This document shows positions 7,660 through 47,029 of a DNA stretch of 64,000 bases, in pieces. The notes below the pieces were generated by a model. The model did not search any database and was not told where the DNA came from. It saw only the letters and a list, made by a program, of their open reading frames with translations. Positions within the stretch are counted from its first letter, which is position 1, and every line of letters begins with the position of its first letter. Where the stretch lies: IMG/VR virus record IMGVR_UViG_3300048914_000231, positions 50,063-114,062 of that record; one strand, 5' to 3'. Made by a program: the position numbers and the translations under genes. The stretch is from a virus.

Positions 7660-10600
7660 TTAACCTTTCAATGCGTCCTTCATGCCCGAGCGAAACGGAC
7701 CCGGGGTGGTTACGGCCGACAGCACCACGTCCAGAACCATCTGCTTGCCATCAAAGCGGGCGTTGCCCTGCTGGGCGTTGACCGGCGTGGACGTCTGGTT
7801 GATCACGTTGACCTGAACGTTGGCGCCGGCGGCCTGTGTGCTACCCTTCATCGTCACCGGAATCGAACGTCCGTCCGGCAGCGGGACGTAGGCTTCCGTG
7901 CCGGCTTCACCGTAGATCGCGACCTGCGGGCTGTTGGCCACGCCGCCGTTGGCGTACTTGCGCAACTGCAGCGGCCCCATACTCGTCATGATGCCGCCGT
8001 TGGCAAACATGAACTCGGCGACCGAGCCTGCCCCAACGCTGTTTTCCGCTGCCGTGGCACCGGCGGCCATGTCACCGCCGCCAAACAGGGAGCCCAAAAA
8101 TCCACCGCCACTCACGCCAGACCCGCTTGTCATCAGCCGTTCGGCGAACATCTGCAGTGCCGGAATGGCCTGGCTGTAGATCGTGGTGCCCATCTGCATG
8201 GAGGCGCTGGCCGTGGTCTCGTCGGCGGTCACACGCTGGGCCGCCGCGGCCGTGGCCGCAACATCGCTGGCGCCCGTTTTGGCCATGCCGAACACGTTGG
8301 TCTTGAGCCAGTCGCCGCCGGCATCGGACAATTGTCTGAGCGGCTCGGCCAGCGCCTGTTTCAGTTTGGCCGAAGCGATCTCCATCAGCATTTTCTTGAT
8401 GAAGTCCTTGACCGCCAGATGACCGGTATTGAGCGAGTCCACGATCATGCTGACAAAGCTGTCGGCCGCGTTGGCGCCAATCTGGTCGACCGCTCTGCCG
8501 ACGTCCTGCCATTCGCGCGCCATTCTGGCGGTCGCGGACTCCATCTGGCGCGCTTCCTGTTCCGCGCGCAGCCGGCGGCGCTCGTTATAGATGCGGTCGG
8601 TGTTGTCGCGGTCGCGCTGGTAATCCTCGTCGATGGCCAGCAGCATTTCGGTGCGCTGCTCCTCGGTCTCGATGCCGGATTCCTTGCCCAGTGTGGCGCC
8701 CGCGATCAGGCTGCGCTCCCTGGCGTACGTATCGTCCAGCGTCTTTTTGCGCATGTTCAGCTGCGCATCCTCGGCCGCGCGCTCGGCTTCCAGACGCAGG
8801 CGAATGCGCTCGCGCTCGGTATCGGCCAGTTCGGCCTTCGACTGGCGGTTCTTGTCCAGGTAGCCCAGCGCGAACGTATTGTTGTCGGCGCGCGCCTGGT
8901 TGAACAGGGCCATCCCCTTGGCGATATTCCACTTTTCGAACGCACTGGTGCCGGCGCCAAGACGCTGTTCGGCACGCTGCAGCTCCTTGTTCAATGCCTT
9001 GAATGCGTCGGTCTGCTTGGCGAGACCGCCATTTTCCAGCGTATTCATCGCTGAATTGGCTTCGTAGAGGGACGCAGCGACACGCTCGTTGGCAAACGTC
9101 ACGGCCTTGATCTGCTCGTTGTAGAGCATGGCCTGATAGGTCTCATCCTTCAGCTGCCTGATTTTCGGATCGTCCGCGGCCGGATTCTTCGTCTTGTCGT
9201 GGTTGACCGAATAGTCGCCCGCCTTGCGCTTGCCCTCGACCAGATCGATCGCCTCCTGGCGCAGGGTCTCCAGCGTCTCGCCGCCGGCCACCAGCGCATC
9301 CAGCTTGGTCTTGGCGGCGTTCATCTTGCCCTGTTCCTCATACAGGGCTTCGTTCAGCGGATCGCGGTCGCCGCGGCGCTTGCCGCTGGTGGCCGCGGCA
9401 TTGTCGATGCGCGCGGTCAGTTTGTCGTTCGGCTTGTCCTTGGGTTCGGCGACTTTTTGCTCGACGCGCTTGTCCGGGGTCAGCCTGACCGGCTGGCGCT
9501 TCTTGCTCTCTTCCGTGATCAGGGTTGCATCGTAGCGATGCTCGTTGATTGCCGAACGCCTGTCGATGTCGGCTTTCTTGCCGGCGTACTCCTCGTCGCT
9601 GTCCAGGTGTACCAGATGGCGTGCCCAGGCCATCAGACCTTCGCCGCCCAGCGTCAGGCGACGCCAGTTCGCGATGATGTGGGTGATGGCGTTATCGATG
9701 CGCTCGCCGATCGTCAGCGTCATCGTACCGAACAGGTCGAACGAATCGAGCCAGTTGCCGATCACCGTGCCGATGTCAAACGCCAGCACGACGAGGCCAA
9801 ACACCTTGAACACCTTGGTCAGCGCGGCAAAGGCGCTACCGATGAGGCCGACACTACCGGCCGCGGCCGGGCCGACGCCAATCAGCGAGCGCAGCACACC
9901 CATCAGGCCGGTGGCACCGAACATCGACATGAAGCCCTTGACCGACAGCACGACACCGGCGAAGCCGGCACCGATCACGGACAGGGTCGCGGCCACCTGG
10001 TTGTTCTGGCCAAACTCGCGAAACATCATCACGACACGGCTGCCGAACTCCAGCAGCTTGGTCAGGGCCGGCAGGATCGTATCGCCGACGATGACCTTGA
10101 AATTGGTCAGCTGGGCGTTGAACTTCTGCATGTTGGCCGCGTAGCTGCCACCCAGGCGCTCGGCGGTCTTGTTGACGCCGTCGGCGCTGTTGATGGTTTG
10201 CGACTGGTGTTCAAGGCGCTCGCGCGCGGCTGGCGTGCCCACGGCGGTGACGGCGGTGACGGCCGACTGCGTGATGCCCAGGCGCTGCAGATACTGCTGG
10301 ACCGCCAGCATCTGGTCCTGAACATTGTTCGGATCCATGCCGTTCTTGTAGAAGCGCGCGCGGTTCTTCTGCGTGTAGGCGACGATCTGCGGCACCATGT
10401 CCTGAATCGCACGCACCGGGTCGCGCAGCCACAGATCGACGTTCTTGAAGCTGCCGTTCTTGGCGTCCTTGAGCACGCCGGCGTCATCCTTCGACAGGTC
10501 CAGGCCGCTCTCGTCGAGAATGCCGGCGCCGATCGTTTCCTGAACCGCCTTGTTCGACTTGGTCTTGCCGGTGGCATAGGCCTGCATCATCTTGATGATG

Positions 10601-12213
10601 GTGCCGACGGTCGACACGCCGCCGCCCGAGCCGCCATCGCCGCCCGAGACCTTGAACTGGTCGATCAGGCCGACGAGATTGACCAGGCCTGCATCCGACA
10701 GCATGTTGGCGCCCGAGCCGACGCGACGCAGTGCGTTTTCCATGTCGGCCAGGTTGACCTTGCCGGCGGTGCCGATCATCGACTTGTTGAGCACGTCGAA
10801 GGTCTTGAGCATCGCGTCCGGATCGGCCGTCTGCTGGCGCATTTCGGTCACGCCGTAGATGTTGCGCAGCGTGGACTGCAGGTCGCCGTGGCCGGCGCCG
10901 AGCAGCTCCATGTTGTTGGCGGCCGAGATCGCGGCCGGCAGGGTCGCGTCGATCACGCTTTCGTGGTTGTAGCCGAGCGACGAGATCGCCGACATCTTCG
11001 ACTTGATCGCGTCCTTGGTCGAAACGACCCCCAGCTGGTCGCTGATCCTTTGCGCGTCCGCAAACAGCTTGTCTTCCTGAACCTTGGGCAGGTTCAGCGC
11101 CTGCACCATGATGCGCGCGCGCTGGTCATCGTCGGCCTCGCCGACCGACCTGCCGATACCCTGCTCGATCTTGGCGCCGGCATACATCTGCGCCATGCCG
11201 CGCCACATGTCGGCGATCATCTTGGCCTGGGCACGCTGTTCTTCCAGTTCCTGACGCTGGATGCGACGACGTTCTGCCGACGCCTCGCGCGCGGCGCGCA
11301 GGCGTTCTGCCTCCGCCTGACGGGCGGCGCGGACCTTTTCGGCCTCCGCCGTGCGCACGTCGCGCGCCTCTTCTTCGGCGTAGACCTTTTTCTGGCGCGC
11401 GAAGTCGGCAGCATTCTTGGCGGCGTCGCGCGCGGCCTGGGCTTCGCGCCGCGCGGCCATTTCACGAATGCGCGCGATTTCCGCGTCGTTACCCTTGCCG
11501 ACGGCTTTCGACACCCGGTCCATCTGCAGTTTGGCTTCAACGTTGCGCAGAATCGCCTGACGCTCGGCATCCAGCGACGAGATCGAGGAAATGCGCGCGG
11601 CCTGGGCCGTGCGGGTGCTGGCGATCAGGGCGTCGGTGGCGGCGATTTCGCGCCGTACCAGTTCGGCGTTCGCGTTCAGGCGTGCAGCCTCGCCCTCGTA
11701 GCCGGTAGCGGTGGCGCCGGAACCAGCCTTCTTGCTGCGACGCGCCTTTTCGGCGGCCAGTTCCGCGGCCATTGCCTCGGCGCGCATCTGCGACTCCAGC
11801 TTGCGCAGTTCGGCATGGGTCTTGATGCGCGAATCGAGCAGCTTCTTGTTGGAGTCGATTTCGTTTTCGAGCACCTTGAGCTTGGCGTCAATCTGCGCGG
11901 TCGCGGCAGCCTTGGCCTGGGTCGCGGCGTCCTTGACGCCCTTGCTGATGCTGGACATGCCACCCAGCAGATTTTTCTGCAACGACTCGACGGTCGTTGC
12001 CAGCGATTTGGACAGCGAGGCGAAGCCGTTGGCGAAGCCGGACATGCCGCTGGACATATCCTTCAGGCCGCCTTCAACCTTGCTGGTGGATTTGGTAAGG
12101 CCGTCCAGCTGACCGGACAGGCCTTTCACCTCTTCCTGATTCTTGCGGACCTTGACGCTGAATCCGCTGTCGTCCATCGAGAGAACGACCTTGATTTCCT
12201 TACCGATCGGCAT
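7660..12213 (-). CDS. Tape measure protein
   Basis: 1517 aa Ala-rich coiled coil, hydrophobic middle, C-terminal FANGG...YGEAGTEAYVPL. Confidence 0.93.
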   Translation of the reverse strand: MPIGKEIKVVLSMDDSGFSVKVRKNQEEVKGLSGQLDGLTKSTSKVEGGLKDMSSGMSGFANGFASLSKSLATTVESLQKNLLGGMSSISKGVKDAATQAKAAATAQIDAKLKVLENEIDSNKKLLDSRIKTHAELRKLESQMRAEAMAAELAAEKARRSKKAGSGATATGYEGEAARLNANAELVRREIAATDALIASTRTAQAARISSISSLDAERQAILRNVEAKLQMDRVSKAVGKGNDAEIARIREMAARREAQAARDAAKNAADFARQKKVYAEEEARDVRTAEAEKVRAARQAEAERLRAAREASAERRRIQRQELEEQRAQAKMIADMWRGMAQMYAGAKIEQGIGRSVGEADDDQRARIMVQALNLPKVQEDKLFADAQRISDQLGVVSTKDAIKSKMSAISSLGYNHESVIDATLPAAISAANNMELLGAGHGDLQSTLRNIYGVTEMRQQTADPDAMLKTFDVLNKSMIGTAGKVNLADMENALRRVGSGANMLSDAGLVNLVGLIDQFKVSGGDGGSGGGVSTVGTIIKMMQAYATGKTKSNKAVQETIGAGILDESGLDLSKDDAGVLKDAKNGSFKNVDLWLRDPVRAIQDMVPQIVAYTQKNRARFYKNGMDPNNVQDQMLAVQQYLQRLGITQSAVTAVTAVGTPAARERLEHQSQTINSADGVNKTAERLGGSYAANMQKFNAQLTNFKVIVGDTILPALTKLLEFGSRVVMMFREFGQNNQVAATLSVIGAGFAGVVLSVKGFMSMFGATGLMGVLRSLIGVGPAAAGSVGLIGSAFAALTKVFKVFGLVVLAFDIGTVIGNWLDSFDLFGTMTLTIGERIDNAITHIIANWRRLTLGGEGLMAWARHLVHLDSDEEYAGKKADIDRRSAINEHRYDATLITEESKKRQPVRLTPDKRVEQKVAEPKDKPNDKLTARIDNAAATSGKRRGDRDPLNEALYEEQGKMNAAKTKLDALVAGGETLETLRQEAIDLVEGKRKAGDYSVNHDKTKNPAADDPKIRQLKDETYQAMLYNEQIKAVTFANERVAASLYEANSAMNTLENGGLAKQTDAFKALNKELQRAEQRLGAGTSAFEKWNIAKGMALFNQARADNNTFALGYLDKNRQSKAELADTERERIRLRLEAERAAEDAQLNMRKKTLDDTYARERSLIAGATLGKESGIETEEQRTEMLLAIDEDYQRDRDNTDRIYNERRRLRAEQEARQMESATARMAREWQDVGRAVDQIGANAADSFVSMIVDSLNTGHLAVKDFIKKMLMEIASAKLKQALAEPLRQLSDAGGDWLKTNVFGMAKTGASDVAATAAAAQRVTADETTASASMQMGTTIYSQAIPALQMFAERLMTSGSGVSGGGFLGSLFGGGDMAAGATAAENSVGAGSVAEFMFANGGIMTSMGPLQLRKYANGGVANSPQVAIYGEAGTEAYVPLPDGRSIPVTMKGSTQAAGANVQVNVINQTSTPVNAQQGNARFDGKQMVLDVVLSAVTTPGPFRSGMKDALKG

Positions 12214-27967: not shown

Positions 27968-28038
27968 CTGCGGGATGAATTGATAGTCAGTCAGTGATGA
28001 CTTATACTTTAGCATCCAACTTTTGAATTGGCAACCAA

Positions 28039-29766
28039 ATGGAAAAAGTAACGATCGCGCGTAACGCCGTGACAGCCATGCTGCACAAGCCCAGTCGCGA
28101 TGTAAAACTGGAAGTGCAGGCGATTCTGTCGTACGCGGTCGCCGGCGCCGAGCATGCGATCGCCTTCAAAAAGGGGGTGTGGGACGGGCGCTCGTCGTTC
28201 CTGGACTTCAGGAACGGCACCTTCCCGGCCGGCTTTACGCACTACGTCACGGCGCACCTGCGGCGCAAGGGGTACGAGGTGCAGATCGCCCAGAAGGCCC
28301 TGCCCGAGCCGCTCGGCCCGGAAAACCCGGTGGTCGACGCCTTTCCGGAAGACCCGCGCTACGACTACCAGATGGAAACCGTGCGGCGTCTGGTCAAGCA
28401 CGGCCAGATCATCGCCCAGATCGCCACCGGCGGCGGCAAGAGCCGTACCGCGCGCCTGGCGTACGCGCGCATCAACCGCATGACCCTGTTCATCACGACG
28501 CGCTCGATCCTCATGTACCAGATGAAGGACAGTTTCGAGCGCGACCTTGGCGTGCCGGTATCGGTGCTGGGCGATGGCCAGTTCGGTCACACCACGTCGG
28601 ACGGGCGCCAGGCGGTGCGCAAGATGTGCGTCGGCATGGTGCAGACCCTGGCGGCCAAGCTGAAGGAAAAGACGGTCGAGGGCGAAGTCGAGGCCGTGAT
28701 CGACGCGCTGGTGGCCAGGGAGCTCAAGGCGGTCAAGGCGCTGGAGAAGAAGCTGGTCGACGCCGGTGCCACGCCGGCGCAGGTCAGGGCCCGGGTCAGG
28801 CAGCTGGAAGAACAGCAGCTGGCCGCGCGCTCGGACTCGAAAAAGATCCAGGCCGATTGCGCCGTCAAGGTGCATGAGCACATGGCGATGCGCGCGCGGG
28901 TGATTGAATTGCTGGGCCGGTTCGAATTCGTGATCATCGAAGAGGCGCACGAGGCATCGGCCGAGGATTTCTACAACGTCATGCAGCACTGCAAGAGCGC
29001 GCACTACCGCATGGCGCTGACGGCGACGCCGTTCATGAAGGCCGACGAAGAGGCGAACATGCGCCTGATGGCGGTGTCCGGCCCGATCGCGATCAAGGTG
29101 TCCGAGCAGACCCTGATCGACCGCGGCATTCTGGCCCAGCCGCATTTTCGCTTCATCCCGTGGGCCGGCAAGCCGCCCAAGCTGTTCAAGCACACCGGCT
29201 GGGCGTCGGCGTACCGGCTTGGCATCACCGAGCACGAATGGCGCAACCAGACCGCGACCGCCGTGTGCCGGCGCTTTGCCGAGTATGGTCTGACGTCGAT
29301 GGTGCTGGTACAGCACACCGCGCACGGTGAGACCGTCAGGCGCCTGATGCTGGCCGCCGGCCTGCGCGTGGATTTCATCCAGGGCGAGGATGACCAGGAC
29401 GGGCGCAAGGCAGCACTGCAGCGCCTGGCGCGCGGCGAACTCGACATCCTGATCGGCACCACGATCCTCGACGTCGGCGTGGACGTGCCGGCCGTCGGTC
29501 ACATCTGCCTGCTGGGTGGTGGCAAGGCCGAGGTGCAGCTGCGTCAGCGTATCGGGCGCGGCCTGCGCGAGAAGAAGAACGGCATGCCGAACCTGTGCTT
29601 TGTGACCGACTTCGCCGACACGCTCAACGAGCACCTGCACAACCATGCCAGACAGCGTCAGGCGATCATCAGGGACACGCCGGGATTCGACCGCTTCATC
29701 CTCTCCGACGGGCGCGACTTCGACCTGGAGGCGCTCGGCTTCAGGCGGCTGGCGGCAGCGGCGTGA
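28039..29766 (+). CDS. Superfamily 2 helicase
   Basis: ATGGGKS, EEAH, LTATP, GVDVP, QRIGRGLR. Confidence 0.95.
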   Translation: MEKVTIARNAVTAMLHKPSRDVKLEVQAILSYAVAGAEHAIAFKKGVWDGRSSFLDFRNGTFPAGFTHYVTAHLRRKGYEVQIAQKALPEPLGPENPVVDAFPEDPRYDYQMETVRRLVKHGQIIAQIATGGGKSRTARLAYARINRMTLFITTRSILMYQMKDSFERDLGVPVSVLGDGQFGHTTSDGRQAVRKMCVGMVQTLAAKLKEKTVEGEVEAVIDALVARELKAVKALEKKLVDAGATPAQVRARVRQLEEQQLAARSDSKKIQADCAVKVHEHMAMRARVIELLGRFEFVIIEEAHEASAEDFYNVMQHCKSAHYRMALTATPFMKADEEANMRLMAVSGPIAIKVSEQTLIDRGILAQPHFRFIPWAGKPPKLFKHTGWASAYRLGITEHEWRNQTATAVCRRFAEYGLTSMVLVQHTAHGETVRRLMLAAGLRVDFIQGEDDQDGRKAALQRLARGELDILIGTTILDVGVDVPAVGHICLLGGGKAEVQLRQRIGRGLREKKNGMPNLCFVTDFADTLNEHLHNHARQRQAIIRDTPGFDRFILSDGRDFDLEALGFRRLAAAA

Positions 29767-29832
29767 CGCTTGCGTAGCGTTATCACGTCATGCTACGCTG
29801 GGAATACCTCACTACTGACTGAAGGATGCCTC

Positions 29833-30057
29833 ATGAACCACACCCTGATTATGAACCTGTTCATCGGCATTCTCGTTGCCGGCGTCGCGTTCGTCACCAA
29901 CGATCCGCTGGCGCTGCTGGGCCTGTTCTTCATGCACGACCTGCCGCTGCACGTTGTCACGAACGAGCAGCAGATTCGCGCCGCCGCGATGGACAAGATG
30001 GATGACGATGATGACGCCGATGGCGGCGGCATCGGATTTACCGCGCCGATCAAATAA
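29833..30057 (+). CDS. Small membrane protein with acidic tail
   Basis: Hydrophobic N-terminus, DDDDD, IGF motif. Confidence 0.7.
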   Translation: MNHTLIMNLFIGILVAGVAFVTNDPLALLGLFFMHDLPLHVVTNEQQIRAAAMDKMDDDDDADGGGIGFTAPIK

Positions 30058-30081: not shown

Positions 30082-30105
30082 AGCGCCCCACGGGGCGCTT
30101 TTTTT
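30082..30105 (+). terminator. Intrinsic terminator
   Basis: AGCGCCCC-AC-GGGGCGCT followed by a T run. Confidence 0.75.
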
Positions 30106-30107
30106 AT

Positions 30108-30138
30108 TTGCGTTCACAAGATGAACGCACGCTATAAT
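30108..30138 (+). promoter_or_regulatory. Promoter with inverted-repeat operator for the array operon
   Basis: Perfect TATAAT at 30133; TGCGTTCA-N5-TGAACGCA at 30109-30129. Confidence 0.7.
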
Positions 30139-30173: not shown

Positions 30174-30458
30174 ATGAGCAATATTGACAAGCGCAACCGC
30201 TTTTCCATCGATCTGCCACCCGACTGGCAGGATTACCTGGCGCACACCGCCCGAATTCACCGGCTGACGCAGGGCGAGGTGGTGCAAACCCTGCTGGCCA
30301 ACATGCACAGCTGCGCCGGCATCGAGCAGGCTCTTGCCGCGCGGCGCGAGGAAAAGGTGGCAGCAAGGCGCAGCAAGGCGTCGATGACCGCGGCATTCAA
30401 GCAGTTGACACCCGAGCAACAGCGGCGCGCGCTGGAGGCGCTCGGAGCCGAATCGTGA
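30174..30458 (+). CDS. Ribbon-helix-helix-like DNA-binding protein
   Basis: RFSIDLP strand followed by two helices (DYLAHTAR / TQGEVVQTLL). Confidence 0.65.
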   Translation: MSNIDKRNRFSIDLPPDWQDYLAHTARIHRLTQGEVVQTLLANMHSCAGIEQALAARREEKVAARRSKASMTAAFKQLTPEQQRRALEALGAES

Positions 30459-30754
30459 AAGACAGGGCACCCGGGCCGAAGCCGGTTGAGGTGTGCCGGC
30501 ATGTATTCCGGCACGCGACGCTGAAGACGATCAATGCCAGGGTTGACCACATCGAATGGATCTTCTTCGAAGGTGAGAAATGGCCGCGCCAGCTGGTGTA
30601 TTTCACGAATGGATCGACCACGTTTGACGCCGCCGCACAGTGGACGCTGGCCCAGGCCAATGCGCTGGCCGAAACGGGCAACTGGACCAGGGAAATCTTC
30701 ATGACCGTGGAAAACGACAGGCCGGATGCATCGTACGGTACGGAGGTATGGTGA
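30455..30754 (+). CDS. Array ORF A, hypothetical
   Basis: GTGA-coupled; ends DRP...EVW. Confidence 0.75.
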   Translation: MKDRAPGPKPVEVCRHVFRHATLKTINARVDHIEWIFFEGEKWPRQLVYFTNGSTTFDAAAQWTLAQANALAETGNWTREIFMTVENDRPDASYGTEVW

Positions 30755-31029
30755 ACCTGCTGTTTATTGAACTGCATTCTGAAAAACTCAGGGATACCGC
30801 GCCGTTTGTGACGGCGTACGACCTGGATTATCCCGGGCCGAACAAGCGTCAGTGGCGCGTCGACAGGGCGCGCGGTGTCGAGTCCGGGGTCAATCGCGAT
30901 GGGAGTGGCATGCGGGGTGTATGGGCGTATCTGGCGGCCGGCACCTGGCTGCAGCTGACGCAGCAGGAAGCCTATACCAAATTTCCTGAACTGCAGACGG
31001 CGATCGAAAACTGGGTGGAGCCATGGTAA
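30748..31029 (+). CDS. Array ORF B, hypothetical
   Basis: Start corrected to ATG 30748; MVN...VEPW. Confidence 0.75.
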   Translation: MVNLLFIELHSEKLRDTAPFVTAYDLDYPGPNKRQWRVDRARGVESGVNRDGSGMRGVWAYLAAGTWLQLTQQEAYTKFPELQTAIENWVEPW

Positions 31030-31379
31030 ATCTGAGCAACAGCATAACGTACGAGAACTACCTGTACCTGCGCCGGCAGCTGGGTGAACAGGAAAACGGC
31101 GACTGGCCGTCGTCATCATGGAACATCATGTCGGCATCAGGCACGCAAAACGTGATCAACACCATGCTTGCCAAATGCGAAAACCTGATGCGCGAGCGTG
31201 ATCTGTCATGGGAGGCGTACAAGAAAGTGTGGAGCAAGGGGTCGGTGCCTGCGTATTTAAATCCGACCGCCTGGGAGGAAGCGCCGCTGTTCATCAAGGC
31301 GGCCATCATCAAGCCGCGTGAGGTGGGTATCGTTGACGTGCGCGAGGACGTGCCGCAAAGCGAGGTGACGCCATGGTGA
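31023..31379 (+). CDS. Array ORF C, two copies of the YxxY..W module
   Basis: TYENY...W / SWEAY...W; ends DVPQSEVTPW. Confidence 0.8.
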   Translation: MVNLSNSITYENYLYLRRQLGEQENGDWPSSSWNIMSASGTQNVINTMLAKCENLMRERDLSWEAYKKVWSKGSVPAYLNPTAWEEAPLFIKAAIIKPREVGIVDVREDVPQSEVTPW

Positions 31380-31588
31380 GATACCGGCCCGACGGACGCA
31401 AAATTGACACGAGCTACGCCAACTATCTGCGTCTGGCCGGTTTGAACCTGATCAGCGCCGACAACCAGCTGACGTCGAACGACTGGAACTGGCTTGATAT
31501 GGACGGCAAGGCTGGTGAAATCGAGCGCCTGATGAACCTGGCCGAAGTGCGCGACCGGCCGGAAAGCGGCGGGGTGGTGGCATGGTAG
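31373..31588 (+). CDS. Array ORF D
   Basis: SYANY...W; ends DRPESGGVVAW. Confidence 0.8.
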   Translation: MVRYRPDGRKIDTSYANYLRLAGLNLISADNQLTSNDWNWLDMDGKAGEIERLMNLAEVRDRPESGGVVAW

Positions 31589-31785
31589 AGCGTCTGTCCT
31601 ACCGTCATTACAAGTCGCTTCATTTTGCCGCCGGTTATGGAGAAGGTGAACTGGCCGACATCGTCATGTGGATGGATACGCCCGACCAGCTGAAACTCGC
31701 CGAGATTGAAATGCTGGAAGAACGCCTGCGCGAGATTCGTGACGAGGTGTCCGATATACCAACCAGCATGGTGACGCCATGGTAA
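31582..31785 (+). CDS. Array ORF E
   Basis: SYRHY...W; ends DIPTSMVTPW. Confidence 0.8.
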   Translation: MVERLSYRHYKSLHFAAGYGEGELADIVMWMDTPDQLKLAEIEMLEERLREIRDEVSDIPTSMVTPW

Positions 31786-31982
31786 AAGATTCAGCCTACC
31801 CTTACGAACGTTATGTGGAGTATTTCAAGATCGTCTGGCCAGGCATGCACCCGATGGATGAATATGAATGGTATGTGCGGCATGGACGCACGGCGCGCGC
31901 GAGGACGATCAAGATACTCGTTCGGCAGATTCCAGATCATCAGCGCAAAGCGCCATTCTTGAAGGAGAGGGTCACATGGTAG
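31779..31982 (+). CDS. Array ORF F
   Basis: PYERY...W; ends ERVTW. Confidence 0.8.
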   Translation: MVKDSAYPYERYVEYFKIVWPGMHPMDEYEWYVRHGRTARARTIKILVRQIPDHQRKAPFLKERVTW

Positions 31983-32182
31983 ACGTGAGCTATGACCGTT
32001 TTTACGCTTTGCGCAGGGCGCTGGATATGCCAGAAGAGGGGGAGGTGGCGCGCAGCAGGTGGGAGATTCTGCCGGAGGCGCATCGGCAAAGCGTCATCGC
32101 CATGATGACCGGCACGCTCAACGGGCGCAACACCGTCCTGTTCCCGTGCGACGCGCCTGAAAGTGAGGTGGTGCCATGGTAG
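31976..32182 (+). CDS. Array ORF G
   Basis: Start corrected to ATG 31976; SYDRF...W; ends DAPESEVVPW. Confidence 0.8.
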   Translation: MVDVSYDRFYALRRALDMPEEGEVARSRWEILPEAHRQSVIAMMTGTLNGRNTVLFPCDAPESEVVPW

Positions 32183-32385
32183 AGGATTGCACTTACGAGC
32201 AATACAAGGCGGCCTGCGTATCGATCAACGAAAAAGCATGTTGGACGCGAGGAGGATGGCTGGGCTTGGTCAAAGACGCGCGGATCGCGGTCATGGCAAA
32301 CCTGTTGAATGCCGGGGCCTGGTGGCCCGATAGGGAGCTTGGCGAGGGTGAGGATGTTCCAGAAACTGAGGTGACGCCATGGTAG
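32176..32385 (+). CDS. Array ORF H
   Basis: TYEQY...W; ends DVPETEVTPW. Confidence 0.8.
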   Translation: MVEDCTYEQYKAACVSINEKACWTRGGWLGLVKDARIAVMANLLNAGAWWPDRELGEGEDVPETEVTPW

Positions 32386-32573
32386 AGGAATTGTCGTACG
32401 AAGCATATCTGCGTCTTCGGCGCGCCGCCAGGCGCGAGGAAGCGCATGACGTCTCGCGCGAATCCTGGGAAGGCGGCAAGGTGGCGCGACGCTTCGTCAT
32501 CAGCTGGCTCACGCGGGAGATCGGGCAGCGCGTCGATGCGCAGGAACTGCCCGAATGGGGAACATGGGGATAG
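32379..32573 (+). CDS. Array ORF I (last)
   Basis: SYEAY...W; ends ELPEWGTWG. Confidence 0.8.
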   Translation: MVEELSYEAYLRLRRAARREEAHDVSRESWEGGKVARRFVISWLTREIGQRVDAQELPEWGTWG

Positions 32574-36792: not shown

Positions 36793-37440
36793 CTACCAGT
36801 TGGCCCACGTGTCGTAGGCGTCGATGCGAATTTCGTGTTCCAGCCTGATTTCGCTGCGCATCTGCCCGATCATGTCGATGCGCCAGTTGATCCGGATGGC
36901 GCGGTTTTCGATACGGTCCTGGCTGCAGTTGTCGATGACGACCTGATCCCTGAAGCCGTTGTGAAAATACAGAACCATGCAGCCGCTTTTTGCCTCGACG
37001 CTTGCGATATTTTCCCTTTGAACGATGGCCCAGTCGTGCCGGTCATCCTTCAGAAGCAGATTCATCTTTTCGGCCCGGTGTCTGGCCACGAGATTGCTTG
37101 AGCAGGTTTCGATCACGTCCCGCCGGTCGTGGTTCGTCGTTCTGATTCTGTACGTCAGGTTGAAGCCGTCGGCGCCGAATTCGGCATGGTAATCGCCGTT
37201 CGTGTCGCGCTCGATCAGCAGCCGGTTGATCCGGTCGATGCGCTCGTGCGTCAGGATATTGTCTCTGCTGCCGTCCGTGATCGCATACAGAATATCGGAC
37301 TGGTTCAGACGCTCCTGATAAATGTTGCCGGCGTCGTTGATGTAGACCCGCACCATCAGCGGATCGATTGTCACATTCGTGGCGTCGTTTTCCAGGCGCT
37401 CCTGCTGCGCGTGCGCTTCCTGTTGTTCCCGCCGATTCAT
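36793..37440 (-). CDS. Hypothetical protein
   Basis: RBS AGGAGGG. Confidence 0.7.
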   Translation of the reverse strand: MNRREQQEAHAQQERLENDATNVTIDPLMVRVYINDAGNIYQERLNQSDILYAITDGSRDNILTHERIDRINRLLIERDTNGDYHAEFGADGFNLTYRIRTTNHDRRDVIETCSSNLVARHRAEKMNLLLKDDRHDWAIVQRENIASVEAKSGCMVLYFHNGFRDQVVIDNCSQDRIENRAIRINWRIDMIGQMRSEIRLEHEIRIDAYDTWANW

Positions 37441-37584
37441 TTTCACCCCTCCTGCGCTATACTGCCTTCGACACGCTCGTGTCCCTTCTGCTTAGGCGCC
37501 CTGACCCCTGCACTCTGCGCCGGTGCACTGTTCGCTGCCATCCCAGCATTGCCGGTGACGTTCTTCCCAGCGTCACCGGCATTT

Positions 37585-42575: not shown

Positions 42576-42875
42576 TTACCAGCTGCCGGCCAGCGTATGG
42601 GTTGGCAGGTCGGCTTTGGCCAGTTCGTGCGCCTTGAGCCAAATCGCCTGTTCCCATTGCAGGTCGTGCCACAGTTTGTCGAAGCCACGGGTGCGTTTTT
42701 CAAGCCATTTGCCCTGTTCCAGTTGCAGGTCGCGCCAGGCCTGCTCCCACGCCTGGCGTTCCAGCTCGACGCGAACGCGCTCGCGCACGACCCTGTTGGC
42801 TTTCTCGCGCTCACGCAGCGCGGCGGCCTTCTGGATCTGATCGCGCTGCCTGACGCGTTTCTGCTTCTTGTTCAC
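42576..42875 (-). CDS. Basic coiled-coil hypothetical protein
   Basis: Internal W.DLQ.EQ..WL duplication. Confidence 0.55.
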   Translation of the reverse strand: MNKKQKRVRQRDQIQKAAALREREKANRVVRERVRVELERQAWEQAWRDLQLEQGKWLEKRTRGFDKLWHDLQWEQAIWLKAHELAKADLPTHTLAGSW

Positions 42876-46291: not shown

Positions 46292-46604
46292 GAGCCACCT
46301 CCCTGATCAGCTGGTCGATCAGCTTCAGACGCCCGCGCTTTTGCCAGCCCAGGCCGGACTTCTCGATGCCGGGGTCGGTCTGCGCCATCGCCCACAGGCT
46401 GTAGTAGGCGTAAGGGTCGATGATGTCACGCACCTTGTAAACAAAGTCCGTGATCTGCTGCGGCGTGCCGAACTGCCGGCCAACGACCTCGATGGCGTTG
46501 CAGATGAAGCGCTCGTCATCGCGCTCGATCATGGCGCGCACCTTCTGCAGGAATTCGACATCGGTGACGCTCTGGCGCGCCAGTGGTTTTGCGAGCGTCA
46601 CCAT
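46284..46604 (-). CDS. Hypothetical protein
   Basis: ICNAI...Y..W...R. Confidence 0.7.
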   Translation of the reverse strand: MVTLAKPLARQSVTDVEFLQKVRAMIERDDERFICNAIEVVGRQFGTPQQITDFVYKVRDIIDPYAYYSLWAMAQTDPGIEKSGLGWQKRGRLKLIDQLIREVAHG

Positions 46605-47029
46605 GCTGCGTCTCCGTCAAAGCCAGGCAGGACGATCATCGAGTCGGGCAGGTCCGGGTTGATCGGCTTGAGCGTGTTGCCTTCCTCGACGAACTTGCCG
46701 CCGTTGCTGTGCGATTCGGTCCACGAGGTCAGAAACTCCTCGTAGTGCGCGATCGCCTCTGCCTCGTTGCGGTGCCAGGTCTCGCCGTTCAGGGCGTCGC
46801 GCACCATTTCGCCGTTCTCCAGGTAGTTGTGGACGGTCATCCTGAATACCTTCTTGTAGGCTTCGAAGACGTTCTGCACGCCGTCGATCTTGCCGTACCA
46901 TTCCACCTCCACGTGCACGCGGCCGTTGTCATAGCGCCTGACCGAAACATAAGCCGCGTCCTGACGTAGTTCGATCCAGCGTTCGCGCCTGATATCATTG
47001 TCCTTGCGGTCCAAATATTGTGTTGCCAT
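46598..47029 (-). CDS. Hypothetical protein
   Basis: 143 aa, good RBS. Confidence 0.75.
   Translation of the reverse strand: MATQYLDRKDNDIRRERWIELRQDAAYVSVRRYDNGRVHVEVEWYGKIDGVQNVFEAYKKVFRMTVHNYLENGEMVRDALNGETWHRNEAEAIAHYEEFLTSWTESHSNGGKFVEEGNTLKPINPDLPDSMIVLPGFDGDAAW

Follow-up and report, generated by a model that had tools for sequence, protein, structure and literature searches.

A tryptophan-ended tail shared by unrelated small proteins of a phage from root metagenomes, and its possible role as a docking peptide

We analyzed a window of 64,000 nucleotides (bases 50063-114062 of the complete virus record IMGVR_UViG_3300048914_000231, 114,062 bp, with terminal repeats) that carries an array of nine tightly linked plus-strand genes, designated open reading frames (ORFs) A to I. 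The array proteins and at least nine unrelated proteins encoded outside the array, mostly among replication and recombination genes, end in the same tail, which takes the form D-x-P-[EDQT]...W-COOH or [WFY]-[GA]-x-W-COOH. In total, about 18 small proteins of the genome are tagged in this way. We regard the chances as about even that the tail is a protein-level short linear motif by which many unrelated small proteins dock onto one shared partner. Positions given below are those of the window unless designated as genome positions.

The docking motif would consist of [DE]-x-P-[EDQT] and, after a short run of small or polar residues, Trp at the C-terminus (often as [WFY]-[GA]-x-W-COOH), carried on a disordered extension. 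Such a common plug would join otherwise unrelated small accessory proteins of the phage clade to one partner. The array would be an operon of translationally coupled genes for diverged three-helix modules, every one with the plug. An obligate Trp end would make the phage use an unusual 7-nt start/stop overlap (ATGGTRR), with the Shine-Dalgarno (SD) sequence written into the tail as E-V.

Terminal Trp was found in 19 of the 230 coding-like ORFs of the 114-kb genome, where 3.2 would be expected (P 1e-9), and D-x-P..W termini numbered 9 to 11 against an expectation of 0.05. Note that the ORF sets were obtained with a simple filter on G+C at third codon positions (GC3) and include a few shadow ORFs, so these counts are approximate. 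The bodies of the tagged proteins are unrelated to each other by BLASTP. The net charge of the tails is between -1 and -3, and their last residue is W, except in two orthologues with F or Y. At least five W-termini have no overlapping start, one of them at an operon end with AT-rich DNA after it. Tagged proteins encoded outside the array include the following.

Genome 759-1190: protein ending ..DVPENSSGAW, at an operon end, stop without overlapping start.
Genome 2490-2945: protein ending ..DIPTSTPTW, stop without overlapping start.
Genome 10257-10613 (L012:10260-10613), minus strand: 118-amino-acid protein with an ExoX-like C-terminal (FGKHKG) motif, ending ..QWGAF; its orthologue ends ..NWGSY.
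36793..37446, minus strand: unrelated 217-amino-acid protein ending DAYDTWANW, no start over the stop.
42576..42875, minus strand: unrelated 99-amino-acid protein ending ADLPTHTLAGSW (..DLPTHTLAGSW), no start over the stop.
46598..47029, minus strand: unrelated 143-amino-acid protein ending PDLPDSMIVLPGFDGDAAW; the sister-phage orthologue ends PDAPELGGVGAW.

The ..QWGAF/..NWGSY pair comprises the only tagged proteins with a Phe or Tyr end. An end of the form [WF]-[GA]-[AS]-[WF] was confirmed on five proteins of the genome. Orthologue pairs keep the tag with bodies that are just 32-40% identical; the ends kept are EYQEFGAW/EYAEFGSW, GAGWASW/GDTWGSW, QWGAF/NWGSY, DLPDS..DAAW/DAPELGGVGAW and DRPDASYGTEVW/DKPDVSYGVEAW. 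The tagged genes are interspersed with those for RuvC, SbcCD, a UvsX-like recombinase, ligase, primase and DnaB.

The array itself is composed of the following genes, all on the plus strand.

30455..30754: ORF A, 99 amino acids, unrelated body, tail DRPDASYGTEVW; the orthologue in locus L001 retains DKPDVSYGVEAW.
30748..31029: ORF B, 93 amino acids, unrelated body, tail FPELQTAIENWVEPW; 80% identical orthologue in L001.
31023..31379: ORF C, 118 amino acids, two three-helix modules, disordered tail DVPQSEVTPW.
31373..31588: ORF D, 71 amino acids, one module, tail DRPESGGVVAW.
31582..31785: ORF E, 67 amino acids, one module, tail DIPTSMVTPW.
31779..31982: ORF F, 67 amino acids, divergent module (profile E 6e-11), tail QIPDHQRKAPFLKERVTW.
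31976..32182: ORF G, 68 amino acids, one module, tail DAPESEVVPW.
32176..32385: ORF H, 69 amino acids, one module, tail DVPETEVTPW.
32379..32573: ORF I, 64 amino acids, last gene with nothing downstream, tail ELPEWGTWG.

ORF B lies outside the protein family formed by C to I, yet it bears the tail (FPEL...VEPW). Within the array, the tails of F (Q-I-P-D...VTW) and I (ELPEWGTWG) are off consensus. In L001, the closest viral contig, the B orthologue (8693-9062) appears to be split into two overlapping ORFs, perhaps through a frameshift or an error in sequencing.

From A/B to H/I, each of the eight junctions is a 7-nt start/stop overlap in which ATGGT is followed by AA, AG or GA. The overlap makes W (TGG) the last residue of one protein and V residue 2 of the next, and it puts A at the third position of the penultimate codon, which therefore reads P, A, V or T. 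GAGGTG, the SD sequence, lies at -13 to -8 of the next start and is read as E-V in the tail, such that the last five array-tail residues (E-V-T/V-P-W) and the M-V of the next gene are written by the junction. Of 17 plus-strand ATGGTRR sites, 8 or 9 are in the array, and about 7 are expected per strand by composition. Because the last five residues and Trp are dictated by the junction too, the array alone could not prove a docking tail.

The tail might then have no peptide role and be a by-product of gene expression, imposed by the SD sequence, the next start or a favorable termination context. The array junctions favor this explanation, and an ATG overlap is present at 14 of the 27 D-x-P..W tails of the phage clade; the overlap is absent from the other 13, some of which are at operon ends. 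The D-x-P codons also lie 5' of the SD sequence, at about -31 to -23, and show synonymous drift. D codons over the 27 tails are GAC 18 times and GAT 8 times (background 71:29), and P codons (CCG 11, CCC 8, CCT 4, CCA 4) are close to background. Genes of this genome are usually coupled by NTGA or TAATG overlaps, for which no Trp is needed; since this is the normal coupling, the 7-nt overlap looks like a consequence and not a cause of a Trp requirement. Array gene I and its orthologues (ending PAWGSW, AAWGSWG and SGWGSW) retain a Trp-rich end without a following gene, and syntenic relatives exist that are tag-less. A by-product of this kind is thus very unlikely: the junction alone does not account for the conserved tail.

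Selection on the D-x-P part acts at the protein level, and the ribosome-binding site does not explain it. An original prediction made from the array sequence had proposed this from the position of the D-x-P codons upstream of the ribosome-binding bases. The codon positions, the background synonymous codon use, the occurrence of the tail on unrelated proteins without overlap and its retention in orthologues all bear the proposal out. Part of what the prediction had named as fatal to it, conservation explained by the ribosome-binding site alone, is contradicted by the 13 tails without an ATG overlap and by the drift in D and P codons. A DNA-level cassette boundary was also considered for the tags outside the array and was rejected, since only TGGTRR is common there. 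Peptide and gene-expression signals can share bases, and caution is needed when conserved gene junctions are interpreted.

ORFs C to I form a real but rare protein family. A family profile was searched against 1.84 billion representative proteins with a cut-off of E≤1e-3, giving 27 proteins (clusters), 9 of them at ≤1e-10. Nearly all 27 begin with M-V and terminate in D-x-P-[EDQ]...W. Metagenomic origin was found for 10 of the 10 matches looked up, several of which are on contigs of about 112 kb. Within its own genome, the profile detects C to I at E 1e-11 to 1e-21 and no other protein. A locus search with the array family returned only L001 and one 1.3-kb fragment, and blastn of the array against the phage collection gave no match. 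The paralogues C to I are 18-36% identical, and each has its own orthologues in sister phages at 50-60% identity, which makes the array an old group of paralogues that have diverged and not a rapidly varying cassette. The DNA occurs in root metagenome runs, contigs from these showed no cassette variation, and no RNA run is listed as containing it.

Alignments reveal a shared core of [ST]-Y-x-x-[YF], a Trp about 20 residues on, then a basic residue and I or M. In AlphaFold2 models of G and C, the module is a three-helix bundle of about 50 residues followed by a disordered tail. Helices in G span residues 6-15, 26-31 and 34-52, with a mean predicted local distance difference test score (pLDDT) of 77. 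Model C contains two helix/short-helix/long-helix units at residues 10-56 and 63-95 (pLDDT 81, predicted TM-score 0.66), and hmmsearch finds a weak second domain in this protein. Values of pLDDT were 43-55 over the tails of G and C versus 80-93 in the helices.

Profile searches of the array proteins against Pfam, PHROGs, NCBIfam and PDB sequences produced no significant match. An ESM Atlas look-up of C returned only unnamed viral clusters with scores in the noise range, and Foldseek (PDB, BFVD) and VIA-wide fold searches with the C and G models gave none above Z 5. Comparison with the three-helix bundle found in Red-beta's C-terminal domain and lambda Orf, which binds the tail of SSB, the single-stranded DNA-binding protein, yielded VIA Z 4.6 with a root-mean-square deviation of 3.2 over 50 residues with model C, and Z 3.9 with model G. 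The same comparison by Foldseek gave TM 0.55 at E 4.9, and all of these scores are within helical-bundle noise.

The original prediction is partly supported by these results. The ORFs and tails that it quoted (A, ending DRPDASYGTEVW, and C, D, E, G and H) are all present at the positions it gave. Its shared core of C to I is seen in the alignments, the profile search that it called for found more proteins than chance would give, and the second module of C and the picture of small helical modules on a constant disordered tail agree with the models. The term 'hypervariable' was an overstatement given the 50-60% identity of sister-phage orthologues. A tail common to C to I holds for C, D, E, G and H, with F and I deviating from the consensus. 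Furthermore, the tail is not a feature of the array as such, as it occurs on unrelated proteins across the genome. Nothing in the analysis ties the array to host defence proteins, adaptors or decoys, which had been offered as its function.

Array proteins could instead be subunits of one multi-module assembly in which the tail latches neighbours together, with the tag elsewhere recruiting other proteins to this assembly. Strict translational coupling, which implies equimolar synthesis, would suit such an arrangement, and the few conserved core residues are aromatic or basic, as would fit an acidic, Trp-ended ligand. Two-module proteins exist (C, P0017, P0018 and P0021), and the 388-amino-acid metagenomic protein P0003 is a single chain in which a B-like N-terminal part is joined to four or more modules and one terminal tail, DKPQSSEAGSW. 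A relic 'AMV' remains at one internal module boundary of P0003, which appears from its sequence to be a fused version of the array from another phage. A complex prediction for G, H and I scored 0.08 (mark 0.32) and carries no weight either way. The array family is, however, absent from sister phages that still bear the tag, and therefore the module cannot be a general reader of it. We consider an assembly of this type highly doubtful.

Terminal Trp was counted in relatives of the phage and in a host chromosome, with the following results, each given as Trp-ended ORFs over all ORFs.

G001 (sister phage): 13/212, P 4e-6.
Massilia contig: 14/218, P 4e-6.
Paraburkholderia metagenome-assembled genome (MAG) region: 12/203, P 1e-5.
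Betaproteobacteria MAG contig: 8/170, P 2e-3.
G002: 6/175, P 0.03 (weak).
No enrichment: phage nickie, 4/200; the relatives from Ancylobacter, 2/222, Paracoccus, 5/210, and Magnetospirillum, 4/210; 200 kb of the Massilia chromosome, 5/254.

The excess of terminal Trp is thus found in betaproteobacterial relatives, including a 113-kb extrachromosomal contig of Massilia sp. TN1-12, with none in the alpha- and gammaproteobacterial relatives or the host chromosome. The Massilia strain is cultured and its contig is a close relative of the phage, which makes the tail testable. In sister phages the slot 3' of the helicase gene that precedes the array is filled by different small families with the same kind of end. 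One such family (L002 10144-11435, equal to G001 8860-10151) has R-Y-F near the start, a later G-x-W-x-E-[VI] and a Trp-ended tail; L001 carries one gene of this type inserted between B and C. The aromatic end extends across the whole betaproteobacterial group, and D-x-P-[DE] is commonest where the phage SSB tail holds D-[VI]-P-D. The aromatic end and D-x-P-[DE] may be separable elements.

If the tail is a docking peptide, a replisome or recombination hub of the phage or its host is our first guess for the partner, because genes for replication and recombination surround the tagged ones and the phage SSB tail contains D-V-P-D. In this gp32-like zinc-finger SSB (genome 13160-14062, minus strand; L028:1163-2062), the acidic tail includes an internal DFDDVPDLD, which is similar to the bacterial SSB tip, and ends in ELDDLLSDLPE. 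The sister phages have EFEDIPDFD or DFEDVPDFD in their SSB tails, and these three segments occur in the phages richest in D-x-P tags. The SSB tail of phage nickie has no D-x-P part, and the SSB of the host Massilia ends in DMDDDIPF. It is possible, though rather unlikely, that the tag copies the D-[VI]-P-D of the gp32-like SSB tail and that the roughly 18 accessory proteins, those of the nine-gene array among them, use it to enter the pocket that SSB occupies on an enzyme of replication or recombination, either of the phage or of its betaproteobacterial host. The scheme would resemble a 'toolbelt in reverse', in which many clients with an SSB-like tip would compete with or replace SSB at one reader. 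If true, it would be an undescribed phage route for wiring accessory proteins into the replisome.

When a reader was sought by phyletic profiling, the list held only small unannotated proteins and a weak sigma-like protein, with no clear candidate among them. Searches of the phage for a canonical SSB, PolA or beta clamp were negative. The CobT-like von Willebrand factor A (vWA) and CobS-like AAA+ proteins of the phage were considered as peptide readers, as D-[VA]-P resembles integrin ligand motifs, and were rejected because both are also present in the tag-less phage nickie.

Several points weigh against docking. No partner was found for the tail, and its binding to anything is something that we infer. 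The SD sequence and the overlap fully account for the last five residues and Trp within the array, which leaves array-only data ambiguous, and some of the W-ended ORFs counted above are probably shadows admitted by the crude GC3 filter. Between D-x-P and W there are anywhere from 6 to 16 residues, and those just ahead of W differ among tails, which is loose for a single pocket; this variation may reflect two distinct elements or several readers. The link to the SSB tail is also imperfect. Two tag-bearing relatives have no D-x-P in their SSB tails, and G002 shows the reverse, with D-x-P in its SSB tail and no D-x-P..W tails.

The logic of the tail matches that of known C-terminal docking peptides, its sequence fits none of them, and its direction is reversed, with many clients in place of one hub. 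The SSB C-terminal tip (..D-D-D-I-P-F-COOH) likewise combines acidic and hydrophobic residues with Pro on a disordered tail and has an aromatic free end. It is one peptide for many interactions, read by many genome-maintenance proteins, and its context is replication and recombination, as here. On its partner enzymes the SSB tip occupies a hydrophobic pocket with a basic lip. In that case a single hub carries the peptide, whereas here many different proteins do. The phage tail further differs in the position of Pro, 6-16 residues from the end, in the terminal Trp and in having no D-D-D run. An acidic run with [IL]-P-F as the last three residues does not occur, although the disordered extension does in the AlphaFold2 models. 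The likeness to the SSB tip suggested in the original prediction therefore gains slightly from DFDDVPDLD in the phage SSB and DMDDDIPF in the host SSB, and does not extend to an IPF-type tip.

Clamp-binding motifs are a second class, with the bacterial forms QL[SD]LF and Q-L-x-L-x-L and the tails of T4 gp43, gp33 and gp55. Like the present tail, they are short C-terminal peptides found on several proteins, and hydrophobic or aromatic residues occupy two positions spaced by three (in the phage tail, [WFY]-[GA]-x-W). The phage tails differ in lacking the Gln-Leu start, in having small residues and not Leu at positions 3-4, and in their D-x-P, which has no counterpart in clamp motifs. They do not match the beta-clamp consensus, the nearest approach being a single protein that ends ..QWGAF. 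A DnaE-type polymerase is encoded by the phage, and no clamp gene was found in it.

A third case is that of T7 gp2.5 and gp4, whose disordered acidic Phe-ended tails dock on T7 DNA polymerase and whose terminal aromatic residue is essential (PMC12339929 and its references 41 and 42). In these proteins too, a phage-encoded acidic, aromatic-ended tail is carried by different replication proteins, and one partner reads it. The T7 tails are on two known replisome proteins, whereas those described here are on about 18 small uncharacterised proteins and are mildly acidic. The phage tails are net acidic with an aromatic end, as in T7. The tag is not on the SSB or a helicase; the SSB, helicases and polymerase of this phage all end otherwise. 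Shared docking peptides such as the SSB tip, the T7 tails and clamp motifs organise replication machines, and are carried, in the known cases, by one hub or a few enzymes. Identifying the reader of the tail would give a cellular address to a whole block of uncharacterised phage proteins.

Encapsulin cargo peptides and the capsid-targeting sequence of T4 internal proteins serve as addresses by which unrelated proteins are bound to a protein shell, and the phage tail might act in the same way, as a procapsid loading signal for proteins that would enter the cell together with the DNA. Such a signal would look like a short peptide that unrelated cargos share at the end of a flexible linker. In McdB the label is an invariant C-terminal Trp, which mediates binding to a protein shell (PMC11321042). 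The known cargo labels have another consensus, however, and the tagged genes are found with replication genes and in a plus-strand operon under separate regulation, outside the head module and not beside shell genes. The tag does not end any head protein, protease or scaffold of the phage, and no site of cleavage can be made out. We judge a loading signal to be very improbable.

The array seems to be its own operon, separate from the helicase unit. The features that precede it on the plus strand are as follows.

27980..28008: helicase-unit promoter-like site, TTGATA-17-TATACT, with the genome-wide operator AGTCAGTGATGACT (27989-28002) in its spacer.
28039..29766: DEAD/DEAH-type helicase (PHROG phrog_16, E 6e-92), which opens the plus-strand block.
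29770..30057: small hydrophobic protein (membrane-like, by eye) with an acidic tail and the end GFTAPIK, kept 3' of the helicase in relatives.
30082..30109: strong intrinsic-terminator-like hairpin AGCGCCCC/GGGGCGCT (30082-30099) and T run, dividing the helicase unit from the array unit.
30109..30138: perfect 8-bp inverted repeat TGCGTTCA-N5-TGAACGCA (30109-30129), then TATAAT (30133-30138).
30174..30458: first gene of the array operon, 94 amino acids; its stop overlaps the start of A (GTGA).

The inverted repeat and TATAAT are, from their sequence and position, a candidate operator and -10 box of the array operon. The candidate operator differs from the genome-wide palindrome AGTCA-N4-TGACT, which is present (≤1 mismatch) in 14 copies at 7258-62250, where 1 is expected. 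One of these copies is the one inside the spacer of the helicase promoter-like site; there is no copy between 28.0 and 44.4 kb, hence none in the array unit. The 94-amino-acid product of the first gene looks like a ribbon-helix-helix regulator, judged by eye; its phrog_3203 match is weak.

The phage is of siphovirus type with about 61% G+C, and its DNA comes from root metagenomes. By portal and helicase, its nearest cultured relatives are Pseudomonas phage nickie and Rhizobium phages of about 115 kb. Closer relatives are separate contigs of about 112-114 kb (L033, L036, L038 and L040) in the Massilia sp. TN1-12, Magnetospirillum, Ancylobacter and Paracoccus assemblies. Because these sit as separate contigs in isolate genomes, the data suggest that the group consists of extrachromosomal, plasmid-like prophages.

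A phage able to persist in this state would be well served by a shared degron, in which a host or phage protease reads the uncharged Trp end and keeps accessory, possibly toxic, proteins short-lived. Non-polar C-termini destabilise bacterial proteins, as in C-terminal degradation signals and ssrA-type tags. The last three to five tail residues are small and uncharged with an aromatic end, and the candidate palindrome-controlled promoter of the array would also fit. Arguing against a degron, the acidic, conserved D-x-P-[DE] is not expected of one with a non-polar tail, a protease specific to tag-bearing phages was not found, and we know of no bacterial C-degron with this tail sequence. On balance, we think it distinctly unlikely that the tail is a degradation signal.

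Nearly all genes of the phage are on the minus strand, and the helicase and array form the sole plus-strand block of the genome. Identified genes encode a lambda-J-like tail fibre, tape measure, portal, large terminase, a ParB-like protein and ribonucleotide reductase. The left arm holds RuvC, SbcCD, the UvsX-like recombinase, the zinc-finger gp32-like SSB, the DnaE-type polymerase and ligase, as well as primase, DnaB and the CobS/CobT-like AAA+/vWA pair. The CobS-like AAA+ gene (AAA_5, CbbQ_C and an N-terminal ROS/MUCR-like part) and the CobT-like vWA gene (genome 21366-22568 and 23359-25320, minus strand) are a conserved pair, found in phage nickie too. A 255-amino-acid protein (genome 19841-20608, minus strand; L028:7844-8608) with a weak match to Sigma70 region 2 (E 4e-4) is conserved mainly in tag-bearing relatives. 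The hydrophobic protein 3' of the helicase, seen at loci L002 and L005-L008, has an acidic stretch and a conserved G-F near the end, with the termini GFTAPIK, MGFTADVR, MGFIH, GFTAKL and GFGFAAPVEE.

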